A stretch of 9,560 bases of DNA from a virus (taxonomy: Duplodnaviria > Heunggongvirae > Uroviricota > Caudoviricetes), in IMG/VR virus record IMGVR_UViG_2529292985_000013, positions 1-9,560 of that record, one strand, 5' to 3'. Position 1 is the stretch's first letter. Each line of letters begins with the position of its first letter. Positions 2,747-9,560 of this stretch are shown here, in pieces. The position numbers were made by a program, and so were the translations under genes. The notes beneath the pieces were generated by a model, which made no database searches, was not told the DNA's origin, and saw only the letters and a program-made list of their open reading frames with translations.

Positions 2747-2956
2747 ATGGCTATCGCTGCAAGTTACACCATGCATCTCTATTGTGACTGCCGTCAGTGC
2801 ACGGAAGGTGTATATCCAGTGCCAGACTTCGGTGAGTATATAGGTACGTCATGGGCTGGCTGTGCAAAAGAGGCGCGCAAGGATGGCTGGCGAATAAGCA
2901 AAGACAAAACGCGTGCTTTTGCGCCCGGGCATAAAGTTTTGAGGGTTAACAAATGA
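2747..2956 (+). CDS. Small Cys-rich hypothetical protein, 69 aa (C-x-C-x2-C ... C), possible zinc-binding
   Basis: ATG at 2747 preceded by strong SD AAGGAG (2735-2740). The longer track ORF from 2675 lacks an RBS, so the internal start is preferred. Stop overlaps the next ATG (ATGA). Confidence 0.55.
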   Translation: MAIAASYTMHLYCDCRQCTEGVYPVPDFGEYIGTSWAGCAKEARKDGWRISKDKTRAFAPGHKVLRVNK

Positions 2957-3783
2957 CCACTATAACCAAAGAGCGACTACTGACAATCAAGCAGTGGCGC
3001 GAAACATACGGACCTGGTAGCAACGTTGTACTGCCAGCAGAAGAAGCGGAAGAACTGGCGCGGATTGCGCTGACATCGCTGGAAGCAGAGCCTATTGGTG
3101 AAGTTTCAGAGAAGCAACATGGCCTTGTTATGGATGGGACGGTAGACCTTGGCGGGAAATCAACTTATCGCATCATTAAGGGAGAAAAAGCGATGAAGTT
3201 GTTGCCGTTGGGGACGAAGTTTTATACCGCACCGCCAGCGCCGATAACGCCGGAGGCCATTGAAAACGCAATTGAATACATCCGCAGTATCGCTTTTCAC
3301 ATCGATGAAGACGATTACCACGGCAAACATATTGCGTATTTCATGCGACAAGCATTGGCCTGGCTGGAAGGGCATTCATGCAGCGACGACAGACAGGGTA
3401 AAGCCGAGAATCAACCAGTACGCGGCAACCAGACTGCCGAATCCAATCGCGGTAATGAGTGGACCGGCAATCCTGATATTGATAACGCAATCATCATGCT
3501 CGACCGCATAGATACGCTGGAAAATTGCGATGATGACCGTATTGAGGCTGTTAAGGCCGTTTTGCGTAGACTGGCTGGCAACCATCCGGATTTTCCGGAT
3601 AGTTCCCAACAATCGCCCAAGAAAAGCGTAAAAACCACTCTGGAAAGAGGCTATCTTGAGGCCGCATTAAAGATTAAGCCGGGCCATACGCTAGGCGTCA
3701 TTGATGCCATGTTGGTTCATGAAATGGCGAAGGCTTTATTGCCGCTGGTGGCTGATAAAATTCCGAATAAGGCCGATATCTGA
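2953..3783 (+). CDS. Hypothetical phage protein, 276 aa
   Basis: ATG start coupled to the upstream gene; long ORF with protein-like composition. Followed immediately by a strong intrinsic terminator. Confidence 0.7.
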   Translation: MTTITKERLLTIKQWRETYGPGSNVVLPAEEAEELARIALTSLEAEPIGEVSEKQHGLVMDGTVDLGGKSTYRIIKGEKAMKLLPLGTKFYTAPPAPITPEAIENAIEYIRSIAFHIDEDDYHGKHIAYFMRQALAWLEGHSCSDDRQGKAENQPVRGNQTAESNRGNEWTGNPDIDNAIIMLDRIDTLENCDDDRIEAVKAVLRRLAGNHPDFPDSSQQSPKKSVKTTLERGYLEAALKIKPGHTLGVIDAMLVHEMAKALLPLVADKIPNKADI

Positions 3784-3793
3784 TCACCATGCT

Positions 3794-3824
3794 AAAATCC
3801 CCTCAATTCACAGAGGGGATTTTT
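3794..3824 (+). terminator. Rho-independent terminator
   Basis: Perfect 11-bp stem AAAATCCCCTC (3794-3804) / GAGGGGATTTT (3813-3823), 8-nt loop, T-run to 3824. Lies 11 nt after the stop of the 276-aa gene. The stem's 3' arm doubles as the SD for the lipoprotein gene. Confidence 0.8.
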
Positions 3825-3828
3825 GTAT

Positions 3829-4095
3829 ATGTTGCATAGAGTTTTATGGAAAAGCGTTATTGTCGGCGCGATCTTGGCTATGTCTGGGTGTGCAATGGTG
3901 CAATACAACGACGGTGAAAAGGTAAGCATCCAGTCAGATGGCTGGTATGGGCTGGATAGTCTGCAAAAAACCGCAGATAAAGCCTGTCAGCAATATGGGA
4001 AGTCTAAAGCCGTATATCAGCATAGCGCGAACGCTAATCCCCATCTCGCGCCCGGTACGGGCGTTCAGAACACCATTTGGAAATGCGAACCATAA
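3829..4095 (+). CDS. Small secreted lipoprotein, 88-aa precursor
   Basis: ATG at 3829 (track ORF begins at an upstream TTG) with SD GAGGGGA 8 nt upstream. N-terminus MLHRVLWKSVIVGAILAMSGC has a positive n-region, hydrophobic core and lipobox-like LAMSG-C (signal peptidase II site). Mature part has 3 further Cys. Confidence 0.7.
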   Translation: MLHRVLWKSVIVGAILAMSGCAMVQYNDGEKVSIQSDGWYGLDSLQKTADKACQQYGKSKAVYQHSANANPHLAPGTGVQNTIWKCEP

Positions 4096-4134
4096 TGCTG
4101 GTGGCATCTTTGTTACAAAGAGGAACACCTGCTC

Positions 4135-4485
4135 TCAATGCAGGGGATGAGATTTAACGAAATCGATCACCCTATCCTGAACTTCAGAAAGAAGGTCTTT
4201 TTCATGCGCCAGGACGTCAGGATATTGACGTTCTGGCCTTACCAGATGCCGGAGCTTCCCATTAAGCAGAATGGCCTCAGAAAACACTTTTACGCTGTGC
4301 TTTATCCCCTCTGTTTCACTTTTCAGCGTCAAAATAAAGCGCAATTGCTTATTAGCCTGATTCGGATTCAATACACGAATTTGCAGTTCGTCTATGCTGT
4401 TTCGCAATGGGATTGATGCCACCACACTGGTGCTGTCTCTGATTGTCTGAATTGAACGGCTAACATTGAGAACGTTATTGTGCAT
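4135..4485 (-). CDS. Hypothetical protein, 116 aa, opposite strand to the surrounding gene block
   Basis: ATG-initiated ORF with purine-rich first codon positions. The overlapping + strand ORF (4138..4416) translates to an F/Y/Q-rich shadow-like sequence. Weak RBS (AGG only 3 nt from ATG) and rare codons (AGA, AGG, ATA, CGA) keep confidence low. Confidence 0.4.
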   Translation of the reverse strand: MHNNVLNVSRSIQTIRDSTSVVASIPLRNSIDELQIRVLNPNQANKQLRFILTLKSETEGIKHSVKVFSEAILLNGKLRHLVRPERQYPDVLAHEKDLLSEVQDRVIDFVKSHPLH

Positions 4486-4517: not shown

Positions 4518-4769
4518 GTGTCAGATCGAAATATAGCAGCTAAAAGCCAGGAAGAGCGAGACAAGGTGAACGTAGACCTTGCCGCCAGCGGCGTTGCTTA
4601 CAAAGAACGGCTGAATATACCTGTGATTGCAGAGCAGGTGGCCCGTGAGCAACCGGAAAACCTGCGCGCCTATTTCATGGAACGGCTACGGCACTACCGG
4701 CAGTTAAGCCTCCAGTTGCCAAAAGGGAGCGATCCGGTGTATCAGAACGAGGATGCACCAAAAAAATAA
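4518..4769 (+). CDS. hot: Homologue of DNA polymerase III theta subunit (HolE-like; P1 Hot-like)
   Basis: GTG start with SD GGAGG 7 nt upstream. The segment [43 protein letters not shown] closely parallels E. coli HolE ([43 protein letters not shown], recalled). Confidence 0.85.
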
Positions 4770-4892: not shown

Positions 4893-5282
4893 ATGGGCTT
4901 CCCTTCTCCTGCGGCGGATTATGTTGAAAGCCGAATTTCTCTTGATCAGCAACTAATCAGGCATCCATCAGCAACCTACTTCATGCGGGCAGCTGATAGC
5001 CATCACCGTGAGGGAATATTGCAGGGTGCTTTGCTGGTGGTTGATTCCTCGCTTACTCCGGTTGATGGTTCTCTGCTTGTGTGCGCTATGGAGGGTGAAT
5101 ATCGCATAAAGAGATACAGGAAGTATCCGCGCCAGCACCTGGAGGATTTAAGCACCGGGAGGAAAGAGGCGTTACCAGTGGATGACGATGGATGCACGGG
5201 GAGTAATGCTGTTTTTGGTGTGATCACTCATGTCATCAATGATGTCCGAAGTGGGGAATTTGACGATTGTCCGGTGATTTAA
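4893..5282 (+). CDS. humD: UmuD' mimic: S24 peptidase-family UmuD homologue lacking the N-terminal arm (P1 HumD-like)
   Basis: Protein begins MGFPSPAADYVE, matching E. coli UmuD from Gly25 (first residue of processed UmuD'). An in-frame TAA at 4884-4886 precludes a longer N-terminus. Ser (ADSH) and Lys (RIKR) of the UmuD dyad are retained. Confidence 0.9.
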   Translation: MGFPSPAADYVESRISLDQQLIRHPSATYFMRAADSHHREGILQGALLVVDSSLTPVDGSLLVCAMEGEYRIKRYRKYPRQHLEDLSTGRKEALPVDDDGCTGSNAVFGVITHVINDVRSGEFDDCPVI

Positions 5283-5346: not shown

Positions 5347-5354
5347 AGGTGTTT

Positions 5355-5576
5355 ATGCAATCCATTAACTTCCGTACCGCGCGCGGCAACCTTTCTGAAG
5401 TGCTCAACAATGTTGAAGCCGGGGAAGAGGTTGAAATCACCCGCAGAGGCCGAGAGCCAGCAGTAATTGTCAGCAAGGCTACTTTTGAAGCCTACAAAAA
5501 AGCGGCGCTGGATGCTGAATTTGCATCCCTGTTTGACACCCTGGACTCCACCAACAAGGAACTGGTTAACCGATAA
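5355..5576 (+). CDS. phd: Phd/YefM-family antitoxin (prevent-host-death)
   Basis: ATG at 5355 with SD GAGG 6 nt upstream (track ORF starts at an upstream GTG). The 73-aa product [56 protein letters not shown]... matches P1 Phd as I recall it. Stop TAA overlaps the doc ATG (TAATG). Confidence 0.9.
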
Positions 5577-5956
5577 TGAGGCATATATCACCGGAAGAAC
5601 TTATTGCGCTTCATGATGCGAATATAAGCCGCTACGGCGGCCTGCCGGGAATGTCAGATCCGGGTAGGGCAGAGGCCATTATCGGGAGAGTTCAGGCCAG
5701 AGTTGCCTACGAAGAGATCACCGACCTTTTCGAAGTCTCCGCCACCTACCTGGTAGCTACGGCGAGAGGGCATATATTCAATGATGCCAATAAGCGTACC
5801 GCGCTAAACAGTGCGCTGCTATTTCTACGCCGTAACGGCATACAGGTATATGATTCTCCCGTGCTGGTGGAACTTGCGGTGGGGGCCGCAACTGGTGAAA
5901 TCCCCGTATCTTCAGTAGCGGAAAAACTACGTGAATTATTTGGTTCCAATATTTGA
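5576..5956 (+). CDS. doc: Doc toxin (Fic-fold kinase, death-on-curing)
   Basis: 126 aa coupled to phd. Contains the Doc-type Fic motif [11 protein letters not shown] (HxFx[DN][AG]NKR). Length and sequence match P1 Doc as recalled. Confidence 0.9.
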
Positions 5957-7523: not shown

Positions 7524-8018
7524 TTAAAACTTTGCGTACTGAAGCGGTGTACGCTTGATTTCAACGCGGTCTTCCGATGTGCTACCAAAGCCACCAGCGC
7601 CTCGCTCTGTTTCATCGAGTTCATCAACTTCTACCAGCGATACCGGTTCAACACGCTCAAAAATGCCTTGCATGACCGCCATTCCTGGCTTGAGGCAAAC
7701 GCCTTCACCACCGGGATCTGTAATCAGTTTTGCCATGATTTCACCGCGATAATCGGAGTCGATAATTCCTACGCAGTTAGCCAGGCGAGTATGTTTTTTG
7801 CAGCCCAATCCGGAACGCGGATAGAGTTTCAGACACCAGCCGGGCGGGATCTCCATAGCCAGTCCGGTGTACACCCACCAGCTTGAGGAAATTGCACCAT
7901 TGCTATCGACACATGGTTTTATTTCAACAGCCTCAAAATCCATCGCCGCCGATCCGGAGGTGGCATAAGCTGGAAGTTTTGCTGCCGGATGTAGGCGTTT
8001 CACTTTTACGTAAATCAT
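7524..8018 (-). CDS. dut: Trimeric dUTPase homologue (deoxyuridine triphosphatase) with divergent motif IV and short C-terminal extension
   Basis: ATG overlaps the upstream stop (ATGA). Motifs: I PAYATSGSAAMDF, II PRSGL, III GIIDSDYRGE, V ERGAGGFGSTS. Motif IV reads GMAVMQ where E. coli Dut has GERIAQ (Arg replaced). About 15 extra residues follow motif V. Confidence 0.85.
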   Translation of the reverse strand: MIYVKVKRLHPAAKLPAYATSGSAAMDFEAVEIKPCVDSNGAISSSWWVYTGLAMEIPPGWCLKLYPRSGLGCKKHTRLANCVGIIDSDYRGEIMAKLITDPGGEGVCLKPGMAVMQGIFERVEPVSLVEVDELDETERGAGGFGSTSEDRVEIKRTPLQYAKF

Positions 8019-8905: not shown

Positions 8906-9560
8906 TTACGAATCCATCAAGCGGCTATTAGCCCCCACAGACACACCGCCACGGCGCAGATACCGCATAAGTGTTTCCGGTTTCTTCCAGGTTCCTTCCT
9001 GCATGATCTCCACCATAGACACCTGCTTTTCAGCCATATCGATAGCGGCCCCGACACGAGCACTATGCCCGGTCCACGTCCGGTATCTCCCTTTGTTTGG
9101 CGCGGCATCCCTTTTATTCAGCAACACCCAGGCGTCGCTGAATATTTTCTCCATTGCAGGTGCAGTAAGGGGCGTTGTCGTAATCCTGGCCTTATTGCTA
9201 CGGTGTATCGGCGGGAACAGCACCGCGTCAGGATGTTCACGAAGCCCGGAAACATCCAGCCAGTCATTCAGCACAGCAGTAGTGCGACGGGAAAGCACCT
9301 TATCAAGCCCGGCGGCGGTCGTTATTGTCTTCGTGTGTGAAATATGTAGCGTGACAGTGTCACCTGTTTGGTCCAGATCTCCTACACGAATACGCGAGAT
9401 TTCCGACATACGCATCAGCGTATTGTATGCAACAAAGAGAAAAGCCCGGTTGCGCTGGTCCACCAGCCGTTCTGACCTGGACAGCAGGACGTCGAGCAGT
9501 TTCAGGTCGTCCCACCGCAACGGTATAGCCTGGCCTGTTCGCTCGCCTTTTTCCGTTGCC
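8906..9560 (-). CDS. Cre-family tyrosine recombinase, C-terminal catalytic part; 5' end beyond the window
   Basis: Frame stays open to the window edge upstream of the track's TTG at 9520. Translation aligns with P1 Cre (recalled) over the catalytic domain: RAFLFVAYNTLMRMSEISRIRV vs RNLAFLGIAYNTLLRIAEIARIRV, GHSARVGAA (His/Arg box), and conserved Trp/Tyr (TWKKPETLMRYLR). Roughly 45-50 percent identity by eye, so it is not P1 Cre itself. Confidence 0.85.
   Translation of the reverse strand, partial: ATEKGERTGQAIPLRWDDLKLLDVLLSRSERLVDQRNRAFLFVAYNTLMRMSEISRIRVGDLDQTGDTVTLHISHTKTITTAAGLDKVLSRRTTAVLNDWLDVSGLREHPDAVLFPPIHRSNKARITTTPLTAPAMEKIFSDAWVLLNKRDAAPNKGRYRTWTGHSARVGAAIDMAEKQVSMVEIMQEGTWKKPETLMRYLRRGGVSVGANSRLMDS

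Follow-up and report, generated by a model that had tools for sequence, protein, structure and literature searches.

A phage moron lipoprotein of an uncharacterised family, with a plausible distant link to YecR, in a D6/P1-like phage-plasmid

Small prophage lipoproteins such as Cor, Llp and Bor are a proven route to phage resistance or host fitness, and few of the families have a known target. In HK97 and HK022, a moron is a promoter-gene-terminator unit inserted between conserved genes, and the HK022 record annotates such genes as "moron gene product". Bor is the product of a prophage moron, an outer-membrane lipoprotein expressed in lysogens. Bacterial lipoproteins are exported as precursors, which are lipidated and then cleaved before a Cys; the Lol system carries the product to the outer membrane. 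We analysed a stretch of 9,560 nucleotides (nt) from IMG/VR virus record IMGVR_UViG_2529292985_000013 (hereafter the window), which is a 9.5-kb segment of a D6/P1-like phage-plasmid. An earlier note, made from the letters of the window, had read a small lipoprotein gene directly behind a strong terminator as a moron of the Cor or Llp type. We found that the element is of an ordinary kind, a phage moron lipoprotein, from an uncharacterised family and with a plausible distant link to YecR. The observation itself held; of its interpretation, the lipoprotein moron and the layout of hairpin and Shine-Dalgarno (SD) sequence were retained, but the kinship with Cor and Llp was not.

The lipoprotein gene and its cassette

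The gene (Table 1) encodes a precursor of 88 amino acids (aa); the alternative TTG start at 3823 would give 90 aa. The precursor begins with MLHRVLWKSVIVGAILAMSG and continues with CAMVQYNDGEK..., showing a basic start, a hydrophobic stretch and the lipobox LAMSG in front of Cys21. Lipoproteins were called with our own coding of the rule of PROSITE PS51257 (positive N-terminus, hydrophobic stretch, lipobox [LVI..][ASTG][GAS]C and Cys at position 15-35), and the window protein, 28 of 28 close homologues and 29 of 30 distant homologues conformed to it. A signal peptidase II site was predicted, and no match to a virion protein was found. The earlier note had described a small gene with a clear lipobox and a mature Cys-containing domain of about 68 aa; both were borne out, and the mature protein is 68 aa long with two further Cys, Cys53 and Cys86, which probably form a disulfide. 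Among six plasmid copies, 33 of the 41 variable sites fell at third-codon positions, indicating that this is a real gene under purifying selection. The residue after the lipidated Cys directs membrane sorting (the +2 rule), and because this residue is Ala in the window protein, sorting to the outer membrane is predicted.

When 5.8 billion proteins were searched, 61 relatives of ~82-90 aa were recovered, all of which were named "hypothetical" and none of which carried a Pfam domain. The mature part was 65-97% identical among the full-length relatives; their N-terminal sequence varies freely, yet the Lys/Arg residues, the hydrophobic run and L-x-G-C are kept. The Gly-Cys of the lipobox is present in Escherichia, Klebsiella, Serratia, Enterobacter, Phytobacter and Mangrovibacter, as well as in distant metagenomic relatives. 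More remote proteins of 80-90 aa were recovered with a profile from 1.8 billion representatives; they follow the pattern lipobox-C..V..NDG..V.IEHD...A..AC.Q.GK..A...NP.LP..G.Q.STFRC, with the lipobox Cys and the two further Cys invariant. The family profile also aligned at many places with three very long proteins (P0068, P0070 and P0084; 739-1197 aa). Only P0070 was read: it is a tandemly repeated low-complexity translation and has the look of an artefact of assembly or gene calling, not of a multi-domain relative.

The 88-aa form (267 nt) is annotated in most RefSeq plasmid records, and in one RefSeq record the annotation pipeline PGAP placed the start at the internal Met at 3880, which gives a 71-aa form that has lost the signal peptide. 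That the product is such a cytoplasmic protein is very improbable: no SD sequence precedes 3880, and the Lys/Arg residues, hydrophobic stretch and lipobox are kept in all homologues despite divergence, which is sensible only if they are translated. We consider just as improbable a lysis role as an o-spanin, to which the position of the gene near lysis genes in one prophage group could point. In that setting the gene lies on the strand opposite to the lysis genes and has no partner i-spanin, the window itself contains no lysis genes, and the protein has a folded alpha/beta domain (mean pLDDT 84). A similarity to the Rz-like phrog_812 (E 0.039, in one homologue) was confined to the signal peptide. 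The product is very probably a real outer-membrane lipoprotein that is made in the lysogen from a moron. Annotation of the intact 88-aa open reading frame (ORF) is inconsistent in RefSeq and PLSDB (CP095127, CP021729, AP038984, CP022228 and others), and several records have no coding sequence over it.

We next compared the surroundings of the gene. D6 is 97.5% identical to the window on both flanks; homology stops at ~3756 and resumes at ~4118, and where the window has 3757-4117, D6 has 280 bp of other sequence (orf105). In AP038984, an unrelated gene lies upstream, and similarity begins at the same left junction. In IncY P1-like plasmids, similarity stops right after the stop codon, and hot begins 2 nt on. 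The E. coli plasmid CP173462 is 100% identical to the window across the whole cassette. Of 5426 complete E. coli genomes, 148 carry the cassette (about 2.7%), and of the 150 places that matched, 148 are on plasmids; the cassette was also found in 160 PLSDB plasmids. Relatives were present in only 15 of 185,579 species-representative genomes, all Enterobacterales.

In each context that we examined, the surrounding DNA belonged to a phage or a mobile element. The copy from Klebsiella occupies the early/nin region of a lambdoid prophage, with another theta homologue close by. The Serratia, Phytobacter, Enterobacter and Mangrovibacter copies lie at the very end of siphovirus-type prophages, past the tail-tip and lysis genes and on the opposite strand, and these prophages occupy different chromosomal sites. 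For two distant metagenomic members, the surroundings are prophage-like and include an integrase, a CI-like repressor, ParB, AlpA and HigB. A tblastn search with the protein found no match in 50,697 phage records, and the records of D6, RCS47 and P1 match only the flanks; even so, its family is among the PHROGs (phrog_7757, see below), perhaps as one built from prophage-derived sequences. A site resembling the C1 operator of P1 was searched for in the window, and none was found.

These results support the view that 3757-4117 is an accessory moron cassette in a D6/P1-like phage-plasmid. The moron status claimed earlier was sustained by the ~360-bp insertion relative to D6, by the different upstream gene in AP038984 and by its occurrence at the edges of prophages and in phages of unrelated types. 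Like lambdoid morons, the cassette is present or absent between conserved neighbours and occurs in unrelated phages and at prophage ends. Unlike them, it has its terminator 5' of the gene, overlapping the putative promoter and the SD sequence, and its composition is not atypical.

Two further observations concern copies of the gene elsewhere. A set of ~112-kb E. coli plasmids, which match from codon 4 onward, was tried as a further upstream type and rejected, as they carry a 5'-truncated remnant without an in-frame start codon (3990-4260 of locus L037, from CP073997; likewise hits H53-H56 and H105-H109). A type I restriction-modification (R-M) operon (hsdRSM) adjoins the truncated copy, and its insertion appears to have removed the promoter and the start. 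A theta homologue lies within ~1 kb of the lipoprotein gene both in P1/D6-like phage-plasmids and in the Klebsiella lambdoid prophage (theta gene at 6795-7058 of L003/L004), and the theta proteins of the window and of that prophage are 69% identical; this nearness may reflect either a shared mosaic module or a functional link.

Family assignment and fold

The window protein resembles Cor (HK022, phi80 and N15) and Llp (T5) in that it is phage-encoded, similar in size (~77-88 aa) and equipped with a lipobox, a short tether and a conserved Cys, as well as in its moron-type placement and presumed outer-membrane location. However, no sequence or profile similarity was detected. The window protein (E 2e-53) and its relatives were assigned to phrog_7757, annotated as of unknown function, and the window protein matched no other PHROG, whereas Cor and Llp, taken from the records of HK022 and T5, were assigned to phrog_1119, "Cor superinfection exclusion protein" (E 2e-37 and 1e-19, respectively), and hhalign of the mature domains gave a probability of 0.1% against each of them. 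By these comparisons, the window protein is not a member of the Cor/Llp family, and the family assignment of the earlier note was dropped.

Kinship apart, the protein could act as Cor and Llp do, by binding the receptor of its carrier phage (FhuA, BtuB or similar) from the periplasm and inactivating it. Such self-exclusion would stop superinfection and the loss of progeny on cell debris, and the shared make-up is consistent with it. In one prophage group the homologue lies a few kb past the tail-tip gene, as cor lies past gpJ in HK022. In the window the gene is not beside a receptor-binding protein gene, its neighbours being pmgU-like, orf106-like and hot; llp of T5 abuts oad. Nearly the same protein, however, is carried by phages with different tails (a P1-like myovirus, and lambdoid and other siphoviruses), and we consider self-exclusion unlikely because the carriers differ so widely in adsorption machinery.

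Like lambda Bor/Iss, the window gene is a prophage moron for an outer-membrane lipoprotein. Unlike Bor, the window protein and 29 relatives had no match to the Bor family in Pfam scans, so that this comparison, also raised in the earlier note, came out negative, and nothing ties the window gene to serum resistance. A Bor/Iss- or TraT-like contribution to host fitness or virulence, through tolerance of serum, bile, antimicrobial peptides or envelope stress, appears as unlikely as self-exclusion, given that no Bor or other Pfam match was found, that the gene has no link to virulence loci and that the structural similarities are weak. Pfam, NCBIfam and PADLOC gave no meaningful match for the protein (weak matches to Phage_tail_X and CopK were below threshold and were ignored), a sequence search of the PDB with the family profile gave 0 matches at E up to 10, and nothing was found in the literature on the phrog_7757 family.

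To examine the fold, an AlphaFold2 model was built from a 28-sequence alignment (mean pLDDT 84). The model contains the signal-peptide helix and then, directly from residue 22, strand-strand-helix-strand-strand. Because the fold starts one residue after the lipid anchor, the mature domain would lie flat against the inner leaflet of the outer membrane. Foldseek searches of the PDB and BFVD gave nothing significant, and the best viral match was an unnamed "Lipoprotein" (E 1.3e-3). The best solved match was YecR, which has the same fold in PDB 7BGL, with ~19% identity in the structural alignment. The earlier statement that the mature domain matches no family stands for curated families, with YecR as the best match among solved folds.

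Several comparisons bear on the relationship with YecR. The two proteins share a helix motif, A-x-x-A-C-Q-Q-x-G-x-x-x-A-V (ADRACQQEGYTHAV in E. coli YecR versus ADKACQQYGKSKAV in the window protein). A full-length hhalign result of 86-92% probability was discounted, as the signal peptides contribute to it, and the comparison was redone on the mature domains. This gave a probability of 55-75% (E 1e-4 to 3e-5, 34 columns, score 26.8), and the maximum score among 30 column-shuffled controls was 15.9; global-mode hhalign gave 2-3%, and a relaxed alignment put the C-terminal Cys of both proteins in register. Scanned at E up to 10, the window protein had no match to the Pfam YecR model (PF13992). 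A single distant relative did match the model, at E 0.004, which we take to fall under its listed 27-bit cut-off, and six matched DUF4189 weakly. The C79/C87 pair of YecR is absent from the window protein, which keeps the helix Cys and the C-terminal Cys only. These comparisons make distant common ancestry with YecR likely, though short of established. The window protein was not filed as a YecR family member because it did not pass the Pfam model and lacks the second Cys pair.

In Salmonella, YecR encircles the flagellar LP-rings like a belt; the L-ring is still assembled in a mutant, and no phenotype or function of YecR is known (PMC11756786, PMC12222027). The window protein differs from it in being ~20 residues shorter, without the ~10-residue N-terminal linker, and in its genomic setting, as yecR is a fixed chromosomal gene beside ftnA and the window gene is found on phages and plasmids. 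A protein of this fold might mimic YecR, replacing it at the L-ring of the flagellum (FlgH) or at a different ring of the outer membrane and thereby altering motility or blocking flagellum-dependent phages, in line with the best structural match and the shared helix motif. The ~19% identity, the missing Cys pair and the missing linker all argue otherwise, as do the distant members in metagenomic bacteria that may or may not be flagellated and the absence of flagellar genes nearby in any context examined, and mimicry of YecR seems more doubtful still than self-exclusion. The reading that we retain is an outer-membrane lipoprotein of a family that is probably, though distantly, related to YecR.

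Hairpin, putative promoter and neighbouring genes

The hairpin upstream of the gene consists of the arms AAAATCCCCTC and GAGGGGATTTT around the loop AATTCACA, with 11 of 11 pairs formed, and TGTATATGTT lies directly 3' of it (at greater length, TGTATATG). The preceding ORF (2953-3783) ends with a stop codon at 3781-3783, 10 nt 5' of the stem. The hairpin has the features of an intrinsic terminator, namely an 11-bp stem with five G-C pairs and then TTTTTGTAT, in which T's of the 3' arm are included, and it is a good predicted terminator of the upstream operon. It dominates the predicted RNA fold of 3770-3850 (-23.1 kcal/mol, z -2.3 with dinucleotide shuffles), and the 53 nt 5' of the start codon gave a folding z of -5.5 with mononucleotide shuffles. 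Region-wide, three terminator-like sites were found versus 1.4 expected, which is not above chance; it is this particular stem that stands out, not the number of such sites. The hairpin and the -10 sequence TGCTAAAAT were invariant in eight of eight aligned plasmid copies, in which many adjacent coding columns vary, and the hairpin is absent from D6 by sequence comparison. The earlier note had described an 11-bp perfect-stem terminator behind the preceding gene, the 3' arm of which supplies the SD sequence; the stem was found as described, a T-run follows it, and GAGGGGA is read directly inside the arm.

There is no space for a promoter between the hairpin and the gene. The consensus TGNTAWAAT occurs twice in the window (0.68 expected), both times just 5' of the gene, and the element TGcTAAAAT overlaps the 5' arm. 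In the Klebsiella, K. indica, Rosenbergiella and Citrobacter copies, TCGAAA-17 nt-TATAAT is conserved over a variable spacer; two Raoultella copies keep TATAAT and not the TCGAAA -35. In these copies, TATAAT is followed directly by a C-rich tract (CCCCCTC, CCGCCT, CCCCGG or ATAATCC) that is complementary to the G-rich SD sequence ~10 nt downstream; the arms differ between loci, and the complementarity stays. The TGcTAAAAT of the window aligns with this invariant TATAAT, giving TAAAAT-CCCCTC-AATTCACA-GAGGGG, with the end of the upstream gene in place of the -35 and TG making an extended -10. In the phage-plasmid lineage, the stem has an A/T extension (AAAAT/ATTTT) and a T-run follows, which would turn the shared complementarity into a full terminator.

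These features suggest how expression may be gated. Transcription would start ~7 nt past the -10, at the first base of the loop, and the C-rich arm would be an untranscribed discriminator. The gene's own mRNA would lack the 5' arm and leave the SD sequence free, whereas the hairpin would terminate transcription from the upstream operon and bury the SD sequence in any read-through RNA. The predicted unpaired probability of the SD sequence was 0.00 in transcripts with the 5' arm and 0.48 in a transcript from 3805. In this arrangement, 45 nt would combine a terminator, a promoter and a ribosome-binding site. We lean, by a modest margin of confidence, towards a promoter of the gene's own that starts inside the hairpin.

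Several observations weigh against a self-contained cassette with expression gated in this manner. No -35 hexamer accompanies TGcTAAAAT, and a consensus promoter scan reported nothing there. A transcript from the second extended -10-like element, at 3753, would hold the whole hairpin; the TG of that element is not kept in AP038984. The Serratia, Kluyvera and Erwinia homologues have no upstream hairpin. No plus-strand terminator lies 3' of 4095, where the hairpin at 4128-4144 is the only one downstream, and a composition profile showed that the base composition of the cassette, including its G+C content, is the same as that of the flanks.

The hairpin could instead serve only as the terminator of the upstream operon, with the gene expressed weakly by read-through or from a start 5' of the hairpin. 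The canonical terminator features, the missing -35, the empty consensus scan and the element at 3753 are all consistent with this. In a variant of this reading, the inverted repeat would bind a protein as an operator or act as a stabilising stem at the 5' end; the operator has a parallel in the prophage-edge copies, whose palindrome is set within a divergent promoter region, a place that would suit an operator. We regard these alternatives as possible but clearly less probable than a promoter inside the hairpin. In three upstream contexts that are unrelated to one another, the C-rich arm directly adjoins a -10 hexamer, and the Klebsiella-type context also conserves a -35, separated from it by exactly 17 nt of variable spacer. 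A fully paired SD sequence would also make for poor translation of read-through RNA, yet the coding sequence is under purifying selection.

The prophage-edge group (L015, L016, L017, L019, L023, L029, L032 and L034) has a different, 12-bp palindrome, ATACCCTTGTACA..TGTACGGGTAT, between TAAAAT and the SD sequence in the ~45 nt before the start codon. Its divergent promoter region lies 44 nt from a 242-aa minus-strand ORF, and L016 keeps the pairing with different bases. This palindrome could be an operator or an RNA element.

The lipoprotein ORF is preceded in the window by a ppp-type phosphatase gene, DUF968 (pdcB-like), Ead/Ea22 and the pmgU-like/DUF551 gene at 2953-3783. It is followed by a convergent 116-aa ORF (4135-4485, minus strand), Hot, HumD, Phd/Doc, dUTPase and the Cre-like recombinase. 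Beyond doc, the gene order matches D6 and not P1. The hairpin at 4128-4144 overlaps the stop codon of the convergent gene and marks the right edge of the cassette, and the sequence from ~4118 on is common to D6 and RCS47. Kinship of the convergent ORF with a VCH_CASS14-like gene near the Klebsiella homologue was considered; on comparison, the two proved unrelated.

Table 1. Positions of the cassette, its signals and the neighbouring genes in the window
Feature	Positions	Strand	Remarks
Moron cassette	3757-4117	+	last ~9 codons of upstream ORF, hairpin, gene, ~20 nt 3' tail
Second extended -10-like element, TGATAAAAT	3753-3761	+	left edge of cassette
Extended -10-like element, TGcTAAAAT	3790-3798	+	overlaps 5' arm of hairpin; proposed promoter, start ~3805-3806 in loop
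Intrinsic-terminator-like hairpin	3794-3823	+	11-bp perfect stem, 8-nt loop, then T-run
Shine-Dalgarno sequence, GAGGGGA	3813-3819	+	within 3' arm of hairpin; 9-10 nt before ATG 3829
Prolipoprotein gene	3829-4095	+	88 aa + stop; alternative TTG start 3823
Signal peptide, residues 1-20	3829-3888	+	ends in lipobox L-A-M-S-G
Codon of Cys21 (predicted lipidation)	3889-3891	+	
Mature 68-aa domain	3889-4092	+	strand-strand-helix-strand-strand
Codon of conserved Cys53	3985-3987	+	
Codon of conserved Cys86	4084-4086	+	
Terminator-like hairpin of convergent gene (4135-4485)	4128-4144	-	T-run absent on + strand
hot (DNA polymerase III theta homologue)	4518-4769		
HumD (UmuD-like)	4893-5282		
Phd/Doc toxin-antitoxin pair	5349-5956		
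dUTPase	7524-8018		
Cre-like tyrosine recombinase	8906-9520		

Proposed action and meaning

The explanation that we favour overall, with fair but not high confidence, is a moron cassette that encodes an outer-membrane lipoprotein of a family probably, though distantly, related to YecR and that has gated expression. The precursor would be exported, lipidated and cleaved between LAMSG and Cys21, and the Lol system would carry the product to the inner leaflet of the outer membrane. There the lipoprotein, which would be made in the lysogen, may bind from the periplasm to a conserved protein or ring of the outer membrane, and this docking would change an envelope property of the lysogen. Exclusion of other phages is the leading candidate for the resulting phenotype, although we hold it only tentatively. 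An improbable but more far-reaching possibility is that this is a miniaturised YecR-like lipoprotein, spread by phages of Enterobacterales and of metagenomic bacteria, that docks on an outer-membrane ring or barrel and whose expression is gated within 45 nt, leaving the gene's own transcript as the only one to be translated.

In E. coli, carriers of phrog_7757 are almost always P1/D6-like phage-plasmids, which also spread resistance genes, and relatives occur in prophages of Klebsiella, Enterobacter and Serratia. Knowledge of the target could feed into the prediction of host range for phage therapy. If that target were known, the family would also provide a functional relative for the orphan protein YecR. 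Should it be confirmed, the overlap of terminator, promoter and ribosome-binding site would offer a compact and reusable means of insulating an inserted gene from the operon that it joins. If the reading as a miniaturised YecR-like lipoprotein is true, the lipoprotein would represent a new, Cor/Llp-independent remodelling of the lysogen envelope, acting on the flagellar L-ring, a secretin or a receptor.

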